From Octopus vulgaris (taxonomy: Eukaryota), in contig OX597823.1 of assembly GCA_951406725.2 (NCBI GenBank), forward strand, positions 56,420,001 to 56,484,000: DNA of 64,000 nucleotides. The letters run 5' to 3'. Under the pieces are notes generated by a model. It was given only the letters and a program-made list of their open reading frames with translations, had not been told where the DNA came from and ran no database searches. The translations under genes were made by a program, and so were the position numbers. Below are positions 15,908-64,000 of the stretch, piece after piece. How positions within the stretch are numbered: the stretch's first letter is position 1; the number at the start of each line of letters is the position of its first letter.

Positions 15908-16347
15908 GTTTGTTCTTTCTTGTTTTTCTTCCAGGTCTTCATACATTTTACTGTTATTACTTGAGTAAAGCTTTAGAGCTTTGGTTCTCAATTAGGGTCA
16001 GTATGACCCCTAAGGCGGTCCATATAAGGATTCTGGGGGTCCCTGTGAATAAAATTTGCTTTAGATGCACTTATTGTGAGAAACAGTTAATTTTTACATA
16101 GTTTATTATGTTTCTGGTCACTGAAGGCGGTTTGTTCTTTCTTGTTTTTCTTCCAGGTCTTCATACATTTTACTGTTATTACTTGAGTAAAGCTTTAGAG
16201 CTTTGGTTCTCAATTAGGGTCAGTATGACCCCTAAGGCGGTCCATATAAGGATTCTGGGGGTCCCTGTGAATAAAATTTGCTTTAGATGCACTTATTGTG
16301 AGAAACAGTTAATTTTTACATAGTTTATTATGTTTCTGGTCACTGAA
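15908..16347 (+). repeat. Exact 218-bp tandem duplication with a 4-nt junction insert
   Basis: 15908-16125 equals 16130-16347, separated by GGCG. Confidence 0.95.
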
Positions 16348-19020: not shown

Positions 19021-19600
19021 GTTACATTGTGGGAGAGCAATTTAAAAACATGCAAAATCCAGTTGCATTAATTTTTTATTTTATTTCTTGAGGTTTCAAA
19101 ATTTTCATTTCACAACTGTAGCTTGGGCTCTGATATAGTTTCCCTGCAACACAATTCCTATGAATTACCATGGAATCAGAGTCTCTGCAGGTTGTGCTGC
19201 TACTTCTCTCTCTGCATTGAGAGGTCACGGCTCAGGTACTATGGACATGTGATTCCAATGTCACAGGAAAGAATTGCAAGATGGATTCTTCAAGTTAAAT
19301 CAGCCGACAGGAGACTTAGAGGTAGAGCAAGAACAAGGTGGTTGGATAACATCGATAGTCTCAGCTGGTCATGCTTGGCAATCTAGCCAGAAAGTCTTAT
19401 GTTGGTTGCTTGTGATTGGACCTTGTGGAAGAGGTCCTTGAGGACTCTACCTCCACAACCCTCTCAGAAATAGTGGGGGGAAAGATGGATGGATTGATGG
19501 ACATGTCAGTGATAAGGTCGCAGTTGTGCGACAGAAATTTTAACACCTCAAAGAATAAATGGAAACTGGATTTTGTCTGTTTTTAAATGGCTAATGTGAC
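19021..19600. mobile_element. TIR element (~100-bp arms) enclosing the RTE fragment
   Basis: 19021-19124 (..TTTAAAAACATGCAAAATCCAGTT..TTGAGGT..AAAATTT..CACAACTG) is the reverse complement of 19515-19600. Confidence 0.6.
19195..19500 (+). mobile_element. RTE-like LINE 3' fragment
   Basis: ERSRLRYYGHVIPMSQERIARWILQ...RRLRGRARTRWLDNI matches the RTE-type C-terminal LRWxGHV...RxRGRPxxRWxD motif. Ends in a (GATG)n tail. Confidence 0.85.
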
Positions 19601-20563: not shown

Positions 20564-21920
20564 CAGGGTGGGCCATAGTGATTGGACTCATTTTAAATGC
20601 TAGTATCTTGGATTATAAAAATGACGTAGAGTACCAAATACATTTATTACATGACTGAGCTACAGGAGTTCAACATATTATCTAAAATTTGAATATTACA
20701 TCCTAGAGATGGTCACCACCATAAAGAGAACATTCACAAGCTCACTTTCTCATATCAGGCACACTGCAGTGTAGTATATCAACTGGAATGGCTGCAATCT
20801 CTCTACAAATGCTTTGTTTTAGTACTGCTGTTGTGTAGGGTCTTGTGTATACTCTATCATTGAAGTGACCCCATAGAAAGCAGTCCACTTGGATTAGATC
20901 TAGTGGTTTGGATGGCCAGTGGATATCATCAAATCTCAAAATGAAATGTCTGGGAAATTGTTCTCAAAGAGTTGTCCTTGACAGTTGTGCTGTATGACAA
21001 GTGACACCATCTTGTTGTATCCAGATCTGTGTCAGGGCATGCCATATGGTTGTAGCACCCAGCAGTTACCATTACAGCTGCACCATGTTCATCTTCAAAA
21101 AAGTAAGGACCAATCACACATGCACACCACACTAATCCTCTCATTGTGCAAAGGCCTTTAATACATGATTTGAGGACTTTCACAACCTCAAAACCTACAA
21201 TTTTGTTTATTAACATGCCCAGAAAGGCTAAAATGAGCTTCAGCTGATGTGATCAAGTGATGGATAAAATCCTTGTCCCCACTGCACATATTGACAAACC
21301 AATCATTAAAAGTCTGCACTATCTGTACCTTATATGGACACAAGTTTAGGTCTTGTTTTAAAATATTTTTGACATTGGGTCGTGAAATATTCAACTGCTC
21401 AGCCAATCAGCGAGGTTGACCTGGGGAGTTTTTCTTCTTTGTACTGCCTGCTTCACAGGCGTTTGTAATAGCACATAAGATCACCTTTCGGGATGATGCC
21501 TATCGTTTTCCAACATGCTTCGGAATTTTCTTTGGGCTACAACAATGGATCTTTAGATGGTGAAGTATGCTTCGACCATGTATGCAATTTCTTTTGGAGT
21601 CCATGACATTATGAGGGTCACCGACACCAACTACCTGTAAAAAATATTCAAATCTTAGATGATATGTTGAACTCCTAACAAGAACTCACTACTTGAACAA
21701 AACTGGATACAACTCACCCAACAAGAACTCACTACTTGAACAAAACTTGACTTAAACAGGATTCGAATAATCCTATCAGGTGGTGCTATTAAGTTAGACA
21801 TGGCCTGGACCAATCTTTGGTCGAAACATATCTAAGTTTATCTAAGTCTAAGTTTTATGTCATTTGTATAATGCCAGATACTAGCATTTAAAATGTCTCC
21901 TGTCATTATAGCCCACCCTG
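20564..21920 (-). mobile_element. Tc1/mariner-superfamily transposon relic (DDxD transposase pseudogene, maT/DD37D-like motifs)
   Basis: TIRs CAGGGTGGGCCATAGTGA..CATTTTAAATGCTAGTATCT at left and the complement ending GCCCACCCTG|TA at right. Broken frames give LNLCPYKVQIVQ, SAEAHFSLSGHVNKQNCR, VIGPYFFEDE, WIQQDG and WPSKPLDLIQVDCFLWGHFNDRVY. Confidence 0.9.
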
Positions 21921-36450: not shown

Positions 36451-36587
36451 ATAAAATAATTCGACATTTAACTGAAGGATTATTCAATACTATTTTTTAA
36501 AAATAGAATACAATTATATTTACTAACTTTTACAGGGGATAAAGTTGACACTGATTTGCTTATACACACACACACACACACATACAT

Positions 36588-37275
36588 GCACTCCAACATT
36601 TCCTTGATCATCGACCCAACCCCAAGCTGACACATCCACACTCCTTCGTCTGGCCGAACTTGTCCTCTCACTTAAGTGCTTCTCGTTCGCGGGTGACCTT
36701 TTACCAGCAAGTCTCGGGAGTGGCCATGGGAATGAGAATGGGCCTCAACTATGCGAACCTATTCGTTGGCTACGTTGTGGCCCAAATATTCTCAAGTTTC
36801 ACTGGTCCCACTTCTGAACTATACGGTCGTTATATTGACGGCTGTATCGCTGCGACCTCACTCTCCTGCGATCATCTAGACTCTTTCCTCATCATCATCT
36901 AGACTCTTTCCTCATCTTTGTCAAATCTTTCCATTCTGCCCTCCACTTCTCCAGCACTATTTCCGACACCTCAGTCGCCTTTCTCGACATTTCGGTCAGC
37001 ATTCATCACTCTACTCTCACCACCTCCATCCACTACAAACATACAGACTCACACTCATACCTCAACTCCTCCTCTCACCCTAAACACACCAAACTCTCCA
37101 TCCCCTATTCCCAATTATTCCGTCTACGTAGGCTCTGCAGTGACAACCATGACTTTGAGACTCAGTCTCAACTCATGGCTCGCCACTTCATCCTACGTGG
37201 ATATCCCCTCACCACTATCCACACTGCCCTTCCCAGAGCACGTTCCATGGACTGTGCATCTGCTCTCTTTTCAAG
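36588..37275 (+). mobile_element. Penelope-like element (PLE) reverse transcriptase fragment, inactivated
   Basis: Translates to YQQVSGVAMGMRMGLNYANLFVG...YGRYIDGCI...VAFLDISV...TSIHYKHTDSHSYLNSSSHPKHTKLSIPYSQLFRLRRLCS...RGYP, the typical PLE RT core and thumb. Catalytic YIDD reads YIDG. A 23-bp tandem duplication (36871-36893/36894-36916) frameshifts it. Confidence 0.92.
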
Positions 37276-37277
37276 TC

Positions 37278-37565
37278 CAGGCAGGCTCATGGGCCCGATT
37301 TTCCCGATTTCTATGGCGTGTTTGTTCCCCCCTGCTGGACGGGACGCCAGTCCATCGTAGCGTTACTCAAGAACCAGGAACAAAAAGTGAGAGAAAATTG
37401 GGACGAAAGCGTACAACAGGGGTCTCCACCACCCACTACCAGATCCTTGTAGAGCTTTAGGTGTTTTCGCTCAATAAACACACACAACTCCCGGTCTGGG
37501 AATCGAAAACGCGATCTTCCGACTGCGAGTCCGCTGCCCTAACCATTGGGCCATTGCGCCTCCAC
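37278..37565 (-). mobile_element. SINE with family-D head and a different 3' body
   Basis: 37450-37563 matches 23899-24011; the remainder differs and resembles 50860-50930. Confidence 0.75.
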
Positions 37566-41036: not shown

Positions 41037-41600
41037 GGCGGCGAACTGGCATAAACGTTAGCACGCCGGGTGAAATGCGTGGACGTATTTCGTCTGCCGT
41101 TACGTTCTGAGTTCAAATTCCGCCGAGGTTGACTTTGCCTTTTCATCCTTCCGGGGTCGATAAATTAAGTACCAGTTATGCACTGGTGGTCGATGTAATC
41201 GACTTAATCCGTTTGTCTGTCCTTATTTGTCCCCTCTGTGTTTAGCCCCTTGTGGGTAGTAAAGAAATAGGTATTTCGTCTGCCGCTACGTTCTGAGTTC
41301 AAATTCCGCCGAGGTTGACTTTGCCTTTTCATCCTTCCGAGGTCGATAAATTAAGTACCAGTTATGCACTGGTGGTCGATGTAATCGACTTAATCCGTTT
41401 GTCTGTCCTTATTTGTCCCCTCTGTGTTTAGCCCCTTGTGGGTAGTAAAGAAATAGGTATTTCGTCTGTCTCCATGTTCTGAGTTCAAATGCTTGCCGGG
41501 GTCGATAAATTAAGTACCAGTTATGCACTGGGGTTGATGTATTCGATTAGACCCCTCCCTCAAAATTTTAGGCCTTATACCTATAGTAGAAAGGATTATT
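41037..41600 (+). mobile_element. Family-B SINE head followed by a 186-bp-period tandem array of its body
   Basis: Units start at 41085, 41271 and 41457. Each complete unit has B-box-like GAGTTCAAATTCC and GCCTTTCATCCTTCCGGGGTCGATAAATTAAGTACCAG, which resembles the Deu/Nin SINE domain (recalled, not aligned). Confidence 0.85.
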
Positions 41601-42090: not shown

Positions 42091-43541
42091 TATATTTTCT
42101 TCAGCAATTGTCTCTGTGTAAGAGAGACAGACTGACAGACGCAGACTTCGTCGTAACTTTATTTCTTTTTTTTTTTTTTACATTAAACAAGCGGGGGAAA
42201 AAAATAATTCCTCCACAAACGCACCCTTTTTGACTTTGTTTCCTCATAGCTACCAGAAAAATTGATTTTTTTTTTCTTTGCAAATATGCTTCAGGTTGTG
42301 CAGATTCTGATTATCTTGGAATTTAGTGTGATTTTTGTTTTGTTTTCGAAGGTGGGGAGAGGAGTATCTGAAAATTCACAAAAGTCGGCTTTGTTTCTTC
42401 ATAACTTTGAGAAAAATGAATATTCTTTTAATGAAATTTTCTATAAATACCATTCAGATATATATTACGATTATATCGAAATTTGATATGATAAAAAAAA
42501 AAAAATGGTGGGCTCACACTCATATATACTGACATATCACACTTTTTTTCTTTTTCTTTTTTTTTTCATTTTAAATTTCGACAGTGTCGTATCTGAAAGG
42601 TATATATAGAGAAAATTTCATCGAAAAATACCCAGTTTTCGGAAAGCTAACTAATGTGAATTTTCCGAAACTTCTCTCCCGATACTCCTAATAACTTTTT
42701 TTCACATATTACCAATGTAATCGGAATTTACACCATCTGAAGCATAAATATATAGAAAATTTCCTTTAAGTTATTCATTTTTCTAGAAGTTATGAAGAAA
42801 GAAAATCAAGGCGGGGGCACATTTGTGTAGTTATACCTTTATTATTATTTTATTTATTTATATTATACTACTTTCAGTATCAGCGTTGTAAATTGTGTGA
42901 TTATAGAAATATGTTTATCAGAAATTAATATTAAGATAGCTTTTAGGCGGCGAGGTGGCAGAATCGCTAGCACGCCGGGCAAAATACTTAGCGACATTTC
43001 ACCTGTCTTTACATTCTGAGTTCAAATTCCGCCGAGGCCCTCTTTGCCTTTTAGGGTCGTACCAGTTCAGCAATAATGTCGATGTAATTGACTTACCCAC
43101 TCACCAAAAATTGCTGGCCTTGTGCCAGAATTTGAAACCAATTATTAAGACAACTTTTCCAATATGATGTATTTCTTCTTCGCTACTTCTTAATATAAAT
43201 CTGCGTCCATGCGTGTGTGTATGTTTATCTGTACATGCACAATCGCACACACAATATATATATATATGCATGTATTTTATTCTTTCCCTTGTGTCAGTCA
43301 TTGAAGTGTGTCCATGCTGAGGCACTGGACCGAAGAGTTTTAGTCGATCAGAAACCCACCCCCCGTACTTATTCTAATGGCTCCCCATTTTCCCGAACTG
43401 CTATGTAATGTAGAGGTAAACAAACTTACATAATTGTCAAGAAGTGAAGTACAACACACGCGCGCGCACACACACACACATTTAATGAGTTTCCGACAGT
43501 TTCCATTAAACCTAATTCACCCGTAAAACATTGATCGACCC

Positions 43542-43659
43542 TGCGAAGGTAAAGAATACGCACACCACCCGTTTTCGGCGGTTAGATTTAGGTTTAGGGC
43601 TAGGTTTGGGGTTAAGGTTACGCCGAGAACGGGTGGTGTTCGTATTCTTTACCTCCGCC
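43542..43659. mobile_element. Mini TIR element with telomere-like loop, inserted in a family-A SINE
   Basis: ~38-bp arms GCGAAGGTAAAGAATACGCACACCACCCGTTTTCGGCG / CGCCGAGAACGGGTGGTGTTCGTATTCTTTACCTCCGC around a TTAGGG-like loop; imperfect 8-bp flanks ATCGACCC/GTCAACCC. Confidence 0.8.
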
Positions 43660-55694: not shown

Positions 55695-56486
55695 CTACAA
55701 CAAGACAACCAAAGTTTTTTTTTTTTTTTTTTCCAAGGTCTTGGGTCTCCCGCCCCTAAGCCCTAGACCATCACCTAATCACCCTTACCCATCTTGTTGC
55801 TTAACAACAACAACAACAACAACAACTACATACACACAAATACAAAATGACAATTTCCTCATAGGGAAAAAGAAAATAGCAGCATACATATGGGTAGTTA
55901 ACATTTTCCATTAAGCCACTGATGTGTGTACCTCATCTGTCTTTACATTCTGAGTTCAAATTCCACTGAGGTTGACTTTGCCTTTCATCCTTTTGAGGTT
56001 GATAAATTAAGTACCAGTTGCATACTGGGGTCAATGTAATCGACTGGCCCCCCACTCTCCAAAAATTTCGGGCTTTGTGCCTAGAGTAGAAAAAAAAAAA
56101 AAAAAAAGAAGTGAAGTTTCCTAGTTCAAATCCAGCCTGGCTCAGTGTACATATTCAAGGATTAAGACACCTCATGATGAGAACTGAACCAATCAAAATG
56201 CAGCCATTGTTGTCATCATGTATCATATGCAGCACATTGATGACACTATGATAAAAGTGTTCCCGATTAATTACAAGTTCTCCTATCAGATCAAGCTATA
56301 GTGTTACTTCGTTCTGACTTTCTCATAGTGTTTTCTTGGCAGAGATATTGAGGTGGTGTGTCATTGCCTTCCTCAATCTGATGGCTGTTGGCCCACAAGG
56401 AGCTCATCTAGCCTTCGGACTAGTCTTGTTTTTCAGTCCTGTTGAGTGTCCAGAAACCCTTCTCTCAAGACTAGCTGATTTTGTCC

Positions 56487-57116
56487 CGTTTATACTACAT
56501 TTTGTATAGTCAGATCAGGATCTCATATTGGCTTTCGGTGCAAAATGTACACTTGCTTATATTGCTAGAGGGAAAGATAAATCCCCACCACCTCCAGATT
56601 TCAGCCTCCCTTGGCTTTGTCAATGATGGATGCTCAAAAACTAGAGATAGCAGCAACTTATTTCTCTGCCAGTAACATATAGAATAACAGTGCACAAAAG
56701 GCGCTGGCATCACAATTAACCACTGACTATGGAACAGGCAGTACTTGTTCACATGGCACCAGTAGCAGGTCTTTTCAGCCTGTGATGAGATCCTGATCTG
56801 ACTATACAAAATGTAATATAAACGCGAAAACTCTAAATATCAGGCACAGGTAACCTTTTCCAAGAAGCACACAGGGATTTATCTCCCCTCTAGTGATATA
56901 AATGAGTGCATTTTGCATCAAAGGCCAATATCAGTTTTTCTCATGGTAACTACCATAGTGTAGTTTGTTCTTACAGAACATCCATGTTTAAGTGGGGATA
57001 AATATTACCGCTTGGTATTAATACTACCTCTCATGCTAATATATATTATTTCACAAGCACAGTGGTCAATTATGATGCCAGCACCTTTTTTGCACTGATA
57101 TTCTATATGTTACTGG
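56487..57116. repeat. Interleaved inverted repeats A-B-C...A'-B'-C'
   Basis: A 56487-56526 / A' 56785-56824; B 56525-56585 / B' 56874-56931; C 56669-56725 / C' 57060-57116. Confidence 0.9.
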
Positions 57117-58325
57117 TAGGGTAATGAAGCAGCTGAAAATGGGGTTTTAGTAGCTTCTATGATACATAAGATATTCCAGCTATCCAGATTACTAAAAACA
57201 CTCTGTAAAACTGACAATTCGTCTTTTGTTGAAGTCTTAAATCCATCTGACCTTAGGGATTATAATCAAAGAGTTGGAGTAATAAAGATGGTTTCAAATT
57301 TGAGTACAGGACCAGTAATTTTAGGAGAAGTGGTACGCCAATATCGTTGACCCCAGTGCTTGACTGGTACTTATTTTATCATTCCAAAATGATGAAAGAC
57401 AAAGTTGACCTTGGCAGCATTTGAACTCAGAATGTAAAGCCAGAAGAAATGCTGCTAAGCATTTTAACTGGAGCAGTAAAAATTCTGCCAGCTTGCCGCC
57501 TTAGTTGACGTCATAATAATGCTTCCAAATTTTGGCTCAAGGCCAGCAATTTTTGGGGGAATGGGCTAAATCAATTACAATAACCCATGTGCTCAATTGG
57601 TGCCTATTTTATTGATCCTGAAATGAAGAAAAGCAAAGTTGATCATGGCAGAATTTGAACTCAGAGTGCAAGGATGGATGAAATGCCACTAAGCATTTTG
57701 CCCAGCATGCTAATGATTCTGCCAGTTTGCTGTCTTAGTTGAAGACATAATAAAAAAAAAACACACAAAAAAAAAATGATGATCAAGAAAGTGGTTTCAC
57801 TAGAAAGGATCAGAAACTGTGAGCAGACTGTCTATTCTTCTGAGATTCCGTGAAATGTACTACACTTATAACCATTGAGCTTGTTGGTATTTAAGGTTTT
57901 CAATTTATTAGCATTTCCATTTGTATGCTTTGTACATAGAACTTCACTTAAGCTATGACACAATGTGAGAACTGAAAACCTCAGAAGAGGAAACCAGCCT
58001 TGTTGATGTAGGTTTTATTTTCCATTCTTTATACTTGAGCATTTAAGATGGCAATTGGAAATGCACTGTTGATTTTATTTAAGACTAAGCATTAAGAAGT
58101 GCTTACACTAGAAAGCTTCACATTAGAGGCTCTGCAAAGGCTAAGGCTACTGGCCTTCCTTCTGTTACCAAACCATTAAAATTACATCTTTATAAGCACA
58201 GGCATGGCTATGTGGTAAGAAGTTTGCTTCCCAACCACATAGTTTTTAAGTGTTTTCCACTATAGCCTTGGGCTAACCAAAGCCTTGTGAGAATATTTGG
58301 TAGACAGAAGCTGAAAGAAACCCAG

Positions 58326-60605: not shown

Positions 60606-61250
60606 CTCCCAGTACATTCTATAAAATGATTGATGTCAGGAAGGGCATCCAGCTGTAGAAATCATGCCAAAATAGACAATGGAACCTGGTGTGGCTACTC
60701 TCAAACCACCGAACCCATGCTAACATGGAAACAGACGTTAAATGATGATGATTTGTTTCAAAAGAAATACAATTTCAAAAGAAACAAATAACGAATAAGG
60801 GGATAAAAATGAGGAAAAGGTACAGTGTGGATTTTAATTTTTTCATTGGTAGTTCACAAGTCTGAGTTGGCTGCTTGAAAAAAAAAACGATTCCCCAAAT
60901 CCTTTCTTTGAGTTTCATATATTTTATTTAACCTGCATCGGTTATATTTACGTAACCCTATATAAATAATTTAATGGAAGAACATTAATGAAACAACGAA
61001 CATAATAGCCAGACAATATTATGAAAATTGCTCGTAGTTACTGAAGATCAAGTTTATAAAAAGAATTAAACTATCGAATATTAAGCAATGTGCGCATTAT
61101 TCGACACTACCATTCAAAGTTGCTACCTTTTGTTGAACATGACATAAGCCTGTCAAGAAACGTGAATGAGAGCGAGAGACCAACTCACTAAACAAAGTGA
61201 CAAGATTTCGTGCATAATGCTGCGTGGCTTTAGTCTGAGGTTGAATTCAC

Positions 61251-61443
61251 CAACTTTTTATAACTGTAAGCCAAATTTCCCAGAACTTTTGTTCGCTCTC
61301 TTTGGCGGGAAAACTCGCACACTTTCTTTGAAGTTTGCCACATCAACCATAACAAGCCAGCCAGTGGTGACTGGACAAGCCATATCCACATGTCTATTAT
61401 GGCAACACACTGTCTGTTTATATGGTTGGTCATGGGCCTGAGC
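61251..61443 (-). CDS. Candidate exon; one frame has a SUEL/Gal_lectin-like C-x8-CP...G..V.V..ANF pattern
   Basis: Acceptor TTTTCTCTCAAATTTTCCTAG|, possible donor TTG|GTGAAT, unique non-repeat sequence with two long open frames. Confidence 0.3.
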
Positions 61444-61759
61444 TAGGAAAATTTGAGAGAAAAGGTTCAAAACTCAGCAGAAGGCTGCCTCACTACAAAG
61501 AGGATGCAAACAAAAGAAAAAAGGGAATAAAAAAATGAGAAGATGTAAATGAAACGAAGAAGAAACACGAAAATAACATTAATAAGGAAAAAATACTCAG
61601 TAAATCATCATAGAAACACATTTACATGATAAGAACGAAGAAATATGACACAGAACCTTTTCATTCAATGAAACAGCATTAAATTTCTGTGATACTTCTG
61701 TACATCCATAAACCGCAAAAGTACATCCAGTCGATTCTATAAAAAGAACGCCTAAACAA

Positions 61760-61808
61760 TACAATTACGCATGCGTCAAGTTTCATTTCGTTTGCTCGAC
61801 ATGGCGTT
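61760..61808. promoter_or_regulatory. Putative, possibly bidirectional, promoter
   Basis: NRF1-like palindrome ACGCATGCGT (~61767-61776) and YY1-like ACATGGCG (~61799-61806), near the start of a CpG-retaining domain. Confidence 0.35.
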
Positions 61809-61857
61809 GTTACTGCAGTTCAGCAATGGGACCCGCAACCTTTTATTTAAGCAGTTG
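61801..61857 (+). CDS. Candidate first coding exon (MALLLQFSNGTRNLLFKQL)
   Basis: GACATGGCG start context, consensus donor TTG|GTAAGG, located in a CpG-retaining region. Confidence 0.35.
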
Positions 61858-63033
61858 GTAAGGAGCATGTAAATTTATTATATTTGTAATTTATTTCTGT
61901 ACCTTCTTTGCTGTGTTCTTTTTCTTTAGTTCTAGCATTGCAACTGCGTACAAAGGTTTTAATTTTTATGAGGAAGGGTGGCATGGTGATTCCAATAACA
62001 TCTTTCGTCTGAGAATCTGGGCATCTTTTACTCGAGTAGCTTCTTGTCAACAAGCACTTGCATATATGTTGATAGATAAATAAATAGAAAGATAGATCGA
62101 TAATTATACAGTAGCCCTTTGTTTTATTTATCTATATATTCTGCAAACATCATCTTGTGGTGCACCTGGACACCTCTTCATTGATGTATTTATTTACGTA
62201 ACCGGACAACGATTAAAAACGTCGACCTTCGTTTGGGTTAAACCCCAGAACATTGCAGGACGCACATACCTTTTAGATATTTACTACATAACCAACGATG
62301 CACTTATTATACCACCATCCTTTCGAGATTAGTTTTTATATTCTCCTATTAAATATAAAATTAAATTTTCGCAACAGAATGGCATCTAGTTGCTATCATG
62401 TTTTCTGAAGGGCATTAGTTACGTAAATGAAATGTTGACTAATAATACTAAGGAATCGAAATCAGCGACTGAGTTTTGTTTAGGAACTTAGCTTGACCTG
62501 TTTGTAACAGGAAATTGTGATATTCAATTTGTTTCTTAAGGGCCATTATCCGTAATTGGAAGTCAACACTGAGTTGCACCATTCATTGTTTTGGTCTACG
62601 TATTATGTATGACCATCGAAATGTAATTCAAATTGATTTCGTTGGTAGTAGAGAAAGAGGTTAATATTAACCGAGAAAGATATATGTGGCATTCATGCCT
62701 TTCCGAAGGGAAGTACTGACATAAACGAAGATAATATGACGATCTTTCATTATGAAGAAAAAATCGCCACTTTCCCTTGGAGTATCCGATTAATTTTGGT
62801 ATTATTTATTATTACACTCGTCTTGTGTAATGAATATAACCTCTGATCCGTGAATTTTCGTAATAGCTAACTACTTCATGGAGAAAGAAAAGGGCAAGGA
62901 ATTTAGGGACGGTTTCCATATGTAAAATAATTGCTTAATGTTTGTTCCCCCCCCCCCATTTTTGCACTTCCGTTCCGTTCCGTGCCCATCTCCGGCGTAA
63001 AAAAAATCTACCAGAAACCGCTATCCATTTTCT

Positions 63034-63179
63034 GCGGAGGTAAAGAATACGCACACCACCCGTTTTCTGCGTAACCCTAACCCGGCGAAAGTAAAGAATA
63101 CGGGTGGTGGTGTACGTATTTTTTTTTACCTCCGTTCCCTAACCCTAAACACCGGGTGGTCATATTCTTTACCTTCGCC
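63034..63179. mobile_element. Second, compound copy of the telomere-loop TIR element
   Basis: GCGGAGGTAAAGAATACGCACACCACCCG...TAACCCTAACCC...ATTCTTTACCTTCGCC; direct flanks CCATTTTCT at 63025-63033 and 63180-63188. Confidence 0.8.
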
Positions 63180-64000
63180 CCATTTTCTTGCATTTCCTCT
63201 TCTCCATGAGGTAGTGGCAACTATTTCGAAGGTCCACCGAGATTACACCCGTCTCACGAAACGGGTGCAATAGCAAAAATGTACCATAATCAACACGTTG
63301 CTAATTCATAAATATCAATATTGATACTTTCCGAGTGTGTAAATGATTTTTTTTTTTTTGCTCGTTCATAAAATTTCTTACATTCATCGATCGTTCTCGC
63401 ACTGTTCGAACATTGCTATTAGCTGTTAGACCAACACCGCCTTGCTTCAAGAGTAAAGGGAGTCTCATCGTGCCTCCCGGCCTGCTAGAAATAGCAGTTA
63501 AATCTTTAACTGGCTCCTTATAGATGTGACGGCGAAGTGCCTTCGGGTTAAGACGAAAGATTGCCGATGTGACTTCAGATAATGCCGGTAAAGGTGACTT
63601 TAGATAAGGACGAGATTGTCATAGCTGGAATGCCTTGTGATTCTGAGGACAAACGGCATTTCTTCTTTGTGTGTATTGATAAAATTACTAGCTTCCACAA
63701 GGCAAACTAACAATATTTATGAATTTACTGCACGTCGGTAACATTTGTGGATTACTCACAAAAAGACAGTATCAATAAAATTATTTATCAAATATATCAG
63801 CTTAGAAAAGTGTGATCAAAAGAATGAGCCCTTAGCTGCCTTGTACGAAATTTGTTTCAGTCTTATCTTGATAACAAATCATTTAGTTTAATACATTATT
63901 CCACCCTTCCTGATAATTCTCTGCATAAGAAAAGGAATTGTTTTCTTTTCGCACCGAACGCAAGTGACATTCCGATGTCTCTGTTATATAAAAACTGTTA

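Follow-up and report, generated by a model that had tools for sequence, protein, structure and literature searches.

Crossing inverted repeats in Octopus vulgaris DNA: probably a multi-template repair scar in transposon debris

The window analyzed here, a stretch of 64,000 nucleotides of Octopus vulgaris DNA, is rich in microsatellites and SINEs, and 47% of it is masked by self-match or simple repeats. A blastn comparison of the window with itself revealed three pairs of inverted repeats close to one another: pair A (56481-56526/56785-56830, 93.5% over 46 positions, E 4e-15), pair B (56522-56585/56874-56934, 79.7% over 64, E 1e-9) and pair C (56651-56725/57060-57135, 85.5% over 76, E 2e-19). 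Read along the sequence, their segments run A B C A' B' C'. None of 1000 dinucleotide shuffles reached the local scores, 77 for A, 56 for B and 93 for C, the maximum of this null being 29. Crossing was seen only for A, B and C among the 19 inverted pairs of the whole window (at least 30 nt, arms less than 1 kb apart). The self-comparison confirms, far above the shuffle null, the three long segments with downstream reverse complements described in the initial annotation, together with their interleaved, non-nested order, and the matches given there for the cores of A and C (39 of 40 and 52 of 57) are correct. A fourth pair, D, had also been proposed; its score of 15 was reached by 995 of 1000 shuffles (p 0.45 in another test), so that it stands at chance level and was discarded as a real repeat pair. 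An internal dimer structure joining B and C had no significance either (p 0.79-0.93).

The whole locus is enclosed by an ordinary nested inverted repeat, formed by a SINE at 55933-56081 that is inverted with respect to two tandem copies at 57272-57753 (68-77%). Elsewhere in the window, two small hairpin-like element copies at 43538-43658 and 63032-63178 match in both orientations (92-95% over 40-50 nt) and hold telomere-like words centrally. Two tandems, a perfect 222-bp duplication at 15908-16347 and a 186-bp SINE tandem at 41085-41490 (97%), are recent events or assembly duplicates, and 61000-63700 shows by eye visibly more CpG than its surroundings, a possible promoter region. Frameshifted frames at 36555-37360 resemble by eye what we take to be a decayed Penelope-type reverse transcriptase, and broken frames at 20700-21600 on the minus strand what is presumably a Tc1/mariner transposase remnant; neither had a Pfam match. 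By resemblance, 19190-19480 is presumably, and probably, the decayed 3' end of an RTE-type LINE. No tRNA was found in the window.

The locus was compared with contigs of runs X1 and X16 (organism A), X5 (organism B) and X11 (organism E). These four come from 24 runs, 20 of them with part of the stretch, in five coded organisms; organisms C and D were left out of the comparison. The comparison covers the rows listed for these runs; a further 122 variant rows, 159 joints, 1310 loose ends and 6722 pieces lie outside it, and a compensatory change or a second copy of the arrangement may be among them. Divergence from the window is about 2.2% for organism B and about 4.9% for organism E. From left to right, the features of the locus are:

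56228 to 56475, minus strand: left-hand part, up to the break, of a decayed 5'UTR-like repeat of the RTE clade (BovB-type), putative host of the insertion, recognized by depth and motif
56476 to 56722, no strand assigned: apparently inserted patchwork block of 247 bp (A + B-X-D + C), without counterpart in organism E and spanned by record 27 of X5
56487 to 56526, plus strand: A, apparent inverted copy of the local single-copy A' (39/40), whose left limit may reach about 56477
56521 to 56695, plus strand: B, X, D and proximal C, internal fragment of a high-copy family by depth and family letters, likely derived from another copy
56669 to 56725, plus strand: C core, inverted match to C' (52/57), the distal 30 nt probably a local copy
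56723 to 56790, minus strand: putative 5' remainder of the RTE-type repeat, right of the break, with five same-strand paralog joints and starting with the CTG microhomology
56785 to 56824, plus strand: A', putative single-copy template of A, covered by record 9 of X11, depth 58-109
56872 to 57045, plus strand: resident high-copy family fragment made up of B', D' and spacers, with loose ends and a summed depth reaching 85,775
57060 to 57119, plus strand: C', probable template of C, in record 31 of X5 and tied to the same repeat family in some paralogs

In organism B, a single contig of X5 runs over 56328-56990 with 9 differences and 1 gap and includes the left block, while the left and right junctions are each spanned by a contig of another organism A run (2 contigs). 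Since contigs of both organisms span it, the arrangement is not an assembly error, and the nested order that the initial annotation had offered as a possible refutation is not what these contigs hold. Organism E has A' yet no left block, as seen in one contig of one run. This 576-nt contig (record 9 of X11) lies on 56130-56475 and 56723-56887, with flanks of 340 and 165 letters on either side of 19 other letters, and the depth of X11 is 0 at 56481-56519, within A. The block is thus restricted to a lineage, organism E being without it. The empty site is present in this record, the only outgroup contig, and in five paralog joints. These five, of 15 joints listed, connect 56314-56417 with 56723-56752 without a change of strand; one of them has its end precisely at 56723, and each consists of one X1 contig plus one X5 contig, with none listed for X11. 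Because the joints skip the block, the block-free state is the family state of the host repeat.

The two flanks, 56228-56475 and 56723-56790, are parts of one high-copy repeat, with high contig depth over 56208-56441. An RTE 5'UTR motif gives one match with 2 mismatches in the window, on the minus strand, where 0 were expected, and the majority letters at 56351, 56358 and 56361 bring the repeat closer to it; words of the motif occur 36-40 times in the supplement of PMC5786205, as far as that file was used here. Judged by the conserved RTE 5'UTR motif, the host element appears to be an RTE-clade 5'UTR-derived repeat (a SINE or LINE remnant). Since the flanks are pieces of one repeat and its paralogs skip the block, the left block would be an insertion into a dead RTE-type repeat, in which up to 19 bp may have been lost.

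Segments A and C resemble nearby sequence in inverted orientation, at 39/40 and 52/57, and more closely still once their differences are polarised: wherever a relative's letter is listed for an A or C mismatch, five sites in all, that letter restores the Watson-Crick pair (56816 in organism E and the other four in organism B). A' lies 62 bases right of the break, and both A and A' are at near single-copy depth. The sole mismatch of the A core, at 56816, is Watson-Crick in organism E, so A is an exact copy at that site, whereas the other listed changes in A', at 56823 in organism B and 56824 in organism E, depart from Watson-Crick; in organism B, A also has a 1-nt bulge. On these letters, A appears to be a near-exact inverted copy of the sequence 62 bases right of the break. 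Concerning C, its partner lies 337 bases right of the break, and positions 57067, 57072, 57083 and 57117 of C' (the last just outside the core) are Watson-Crick to C in organism B. Organism E or paralogs support 57067 and 57072 and not 57083, which is ambiguous as organism E has the window letter there and gene conversion in organism B is possible; 57117 has no organism E cover. The remaining C mismatches, 56687 and 56695, lie close to where the additional cover by family contigs stops, at about 56694. That C came wholly from a distant donor has P 0.08 on window letters and 0.003-0.01 after polarising, and C is probably a near-exact inverted copy of the sequence 337 bases right of the break. 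A paralog, record 7 of X1, runs over 56951-57086 and joins the resident fragment to C'.

The middle of the block was traced to a repeat family rather than to one donor locus. Over 56521-56695 the depth reaches thousands in each of the three DNA runs, and so also in that of organism E, which is without the block. Between B and B' there are 10 substitutions over 61 columns, more than a copy younger than the split from organism E should have (P 7e-4 at 4.9%), and at 56923 and 56932 B, unlike B', agrees with the family letter. The contrast in divergence between B and A plus C has p 0.056 on window letters alone and p 0.001-0.005 after polarising with relatives. No significant local source was found for 56586-56668. 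Taken together, the family letters, the B/B' divergence and this missing local source make 56521 to about 56695 best read as an internal fragment likely copied from another family member and not from the local B'. In family contigs B-X and D-proximal C are contiguous, and the family continues past B, with loose ends before 56521. Many of its copies end near 57008-57031, in AT-rich sequence, and same-strand joints connect 56555-56567 to 56904-56933. The family of 56872-57045 is common to organisms A, B and E at very high copy, and in several of its contigs the reverse complement of B comes after B itself, which points to a family of fold-back or MITE-like type. A listing-level literature search found no specific published octopus description of this family, which we do not claim to be undescribed. 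Metagenomes gave 0 matches to its members, and one genome-contig match to the family query was confined to a 20-mer and set aside as chance.

The inner and right junctions of the block show microhomologies of 3-6 nt. At the right junction, CTG at 56723-56725 is common to the old flank and the end of C (3 nt). At the junction of A and B, 6 nt (56521-56526) are compatible with A' as well as with B in its family form, against 2 offered by the local B'. The switch from C to the donor falls in homologous sequence, and the left junction was placed within 56476-56487. The block has no tail, and despite a 4-nt repeat present at its two ends, the 19 extra letters in organism E argue against a target-site duplication.

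From the observed presence and absence of the block, its repeat content, the identities and the microhomologies, we consider it quite probable that the block is one compound microhomology-mediated templated insertion, made by fold-back and template-switch repair in transposon debris and now decaying. We infer the direction and order of copying, read on the minus strand, as follows. A break inside the decayed RTE-type repeat would have removed up to 19 bp, and the right end would have been resected. The 3' end of this right end may then have folded back onto the 3-nt match at 57060-57062 and copied C'. A switch by homology to another member of the C'-related repeat family would have added some 150-175 nt (D, X and B), and a return switch through the 6-nt match at 56521-56526 to the nearer local template A' a further 40-50 nt, before the new end was joined to the left end. 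As the far template would be copied first and the near one last, the copies stand in template order, and so the repeats cross instead of nesting. The enzyme class would be Pol theta end joining or an MMBIR-like process. A serial template-switch scar was among the origins listed in the initial annotation and is the one that survives; it is supported by the lineage-restricted block, the 19 replaced letters, the interrupted older repeat and the junction microhomologies, while the non-autonomous element and the functional pseudoknot listed with it were not supported.

Alternatively, a family fragment of about 204 bp (C-D-X-B in one piece) could have been inserted by a transposon-driven event, such as abortive transposition, gap repair after excision or reverse-transcriptase template jumping, with only A copied locally at the junction. 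The contiguity of B-X and of D-proximal C in family contigs fits such an event, as do the paralogs that join the resident fragment to C', and on window letters C versus C' is compatible with a distant donor (P 0.08). However, the fragment is internal, the family extending beyond B; it has no tail or target-site duplication and replaces 19 letters; and the polarised C is nearer to C' than family divergence predicts (P 0.003-0.03). We regard this route as unlikely.

The crossing repeats could instead be a selected RNA structure whose three duplexes, competing or pseudoknotted, affect splicing or ADAR editing and were possibly exapted after insertion. Each duplex would be very stable on either strand (-59 to -92 kcal/mol, fold z -6.1 and -7.6), the block is retained in organisms A and B, and four of five derived mismatches are still G-U-compatible on the minus strand (p 0.375). 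Against selection, organism E, at about 5% divergence, has none of the left partners; none of the 7 arm variants listed forms a compensatory pair; A of organism B has its 1-nt bulge; and C', with 4 of the 12 differences of organism B's contig over 56980-57290, shows no stronger conservation than its flanks. As for B, the six G-U-compatible differences reported on the plus strand are real but hold no strand signal: over the three pairs, wobble-compatible differences split 7 plus to 7 minus and so indicate no strand, as expected for plain transitions. No Rfam family was found at the locus, and at gathering score the whole window gave 0 matches. No host exon was found either: 167 frames (165 non-repeat frames of at least 40 aa and GC of at least 0.36, plus 2 added by hand, scanned as 78 and 89) gave 3 weak Pfam matches and none at the cut-off, a search that short or AT-rich exons would escape. 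A match to mir-958 in 56000-57400 (E 0.22, 20.5 bits against a cut-off of 78) was taken as chance. Run X16 of organism A, whose RNA status is guessed, gave a single contig (256 nt, depth 2.1) over 56605-56815, which is evidence of neither transcription nor editing.

With left partners absent in a relative at about 5% and the listed differences uncompensated, we did not retain the functional pseudoknot, or splicing or ADAR switch, and we hold selection on this RNA to be very unlikely. The initial annotation had named a single-copy locus with neither conservation nor compensatory changes as the mark of a one-off rearrangement, and this is largely what was found: A and A' are single-copy, the block is absent in organism E and the listed variants are uncompensated. 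It is just as improbable that a three-helix crossing (ABCABC) RNA, made ready from transposon debris by one repair event, has since been co-opted by the lineage as a minus-strand editing or splicing switch; were this true, a single locus would show a complex pseudoknotted regulatory RNA born in one mutational step. We assign the block no function, and in any RNA made through it long duplexes would arise as a by-product.

A yet smaller chance is given to an older arrangement that organism E lost by a deletion with a 19-nt filler: although only one outgroup contig was seen, the block is skipped in paralogs of the host repeat, and at the informative site 56816 A agrees with the A' of organism E, which implies recent copying. 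Even if organism E had lost it, the block would stay a templated patchwork. Hardly credible is a non-autonomous element of an undescribed type, whether DIRS-like or not, that uses its interleaved repeats to replicate: A..C may resemble a C'-to-A' circle junction read in reverse complement, as the DIRS ICR does, but A and A' are at single-copy depth, the stretch taken as ICR has a gap of about 140 nt and falls outside the supposed element, the order differs from lITR-lICR-rICR-rITR-rE, the two halves differ in age, and no second A-B-C..A'-B'-C' unit was found in the window by self-comparison or among the contig rows listed. The local frames tested had no Pfam match to a reverse transcriptase or tyrosine recombinase. 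The whole unit was also rejected as a MITE on its crossing order, which is not that of nested TIRs, its 19 replaced letters and its single-copy arms.

The feature is real, and probably an ordinary mutation scar rather than a functional knotted RNA. If it is a scar, it is a neat case, open to dating, of germline repair in an invertebrate that drew on several templates and apparently jumped from a local one to a distant repeat copy before returning. Genome scans can take a caution from it: a single mutation can produce long inverted repeats that cross and have high folding z-scores, and an outgroup check is needed before a functional RNA is proposed from such repeats. The locus brings no new biology unless expression and editing are shown.

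Among known systems, DIRS1-like elements, as defined in the part of PMC3266345 used here, have the order lITR-lICR-rICR-rITR-rE, with ICRs overlapping on a 3-bp junction. The locus is like them in its crossing inverted repeats and in having one segment complementary to two separate places, but its order is another one, as the initial annotation had stated and this definition confirms; besides, it is non-contiguous, single-copy and without coding frames. Closer are the complex MMB-TI described in PMC8421209, germline insertions built from 3 to 5 templates, with inverted nearby copies and short junction microhomologies as here. Unlike those, the present insert has 247 bp and templates 62 and 337 bp away, whereas that study, by its own account, searched within 100 bp; moreover, one segment probably comes from a distant repeat copy, and the event is fixed in an invertebrate lineage. 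The block also resembles the snap-back delins of Pol theta end joining or SD-MMEJ (PMC5728401, which gives the snap-back model, and PMC5068794, which describes reiterated priming from one flank) and the fold-back inverted insertions of yeast, up to about 150 bp (PMC11724301): a small deletion with an insertion, reverse-complement copies from one side of the break, and reiterated priming. In the sections of those papers drawn on, inserts are typically below 30 bp and within about 20 bp, against 247 bp here, where the enzyme class is a putative assignment. The distances of 62 and 337 bp and the 247-bp insert exceed the typical sizes, mostly within 20-100 bp, given in the corresponding parts of PMC8421209, PMC11724301, PMC5068794 and PMC5728401. 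Finally, the four-point short template switches of PMC5453318, found by comparing close species, likewise create new inverted repeats able to form RNA structure; the model, in the form outlined there, covers a single switch pair, whereas at least three templates would be needed here.
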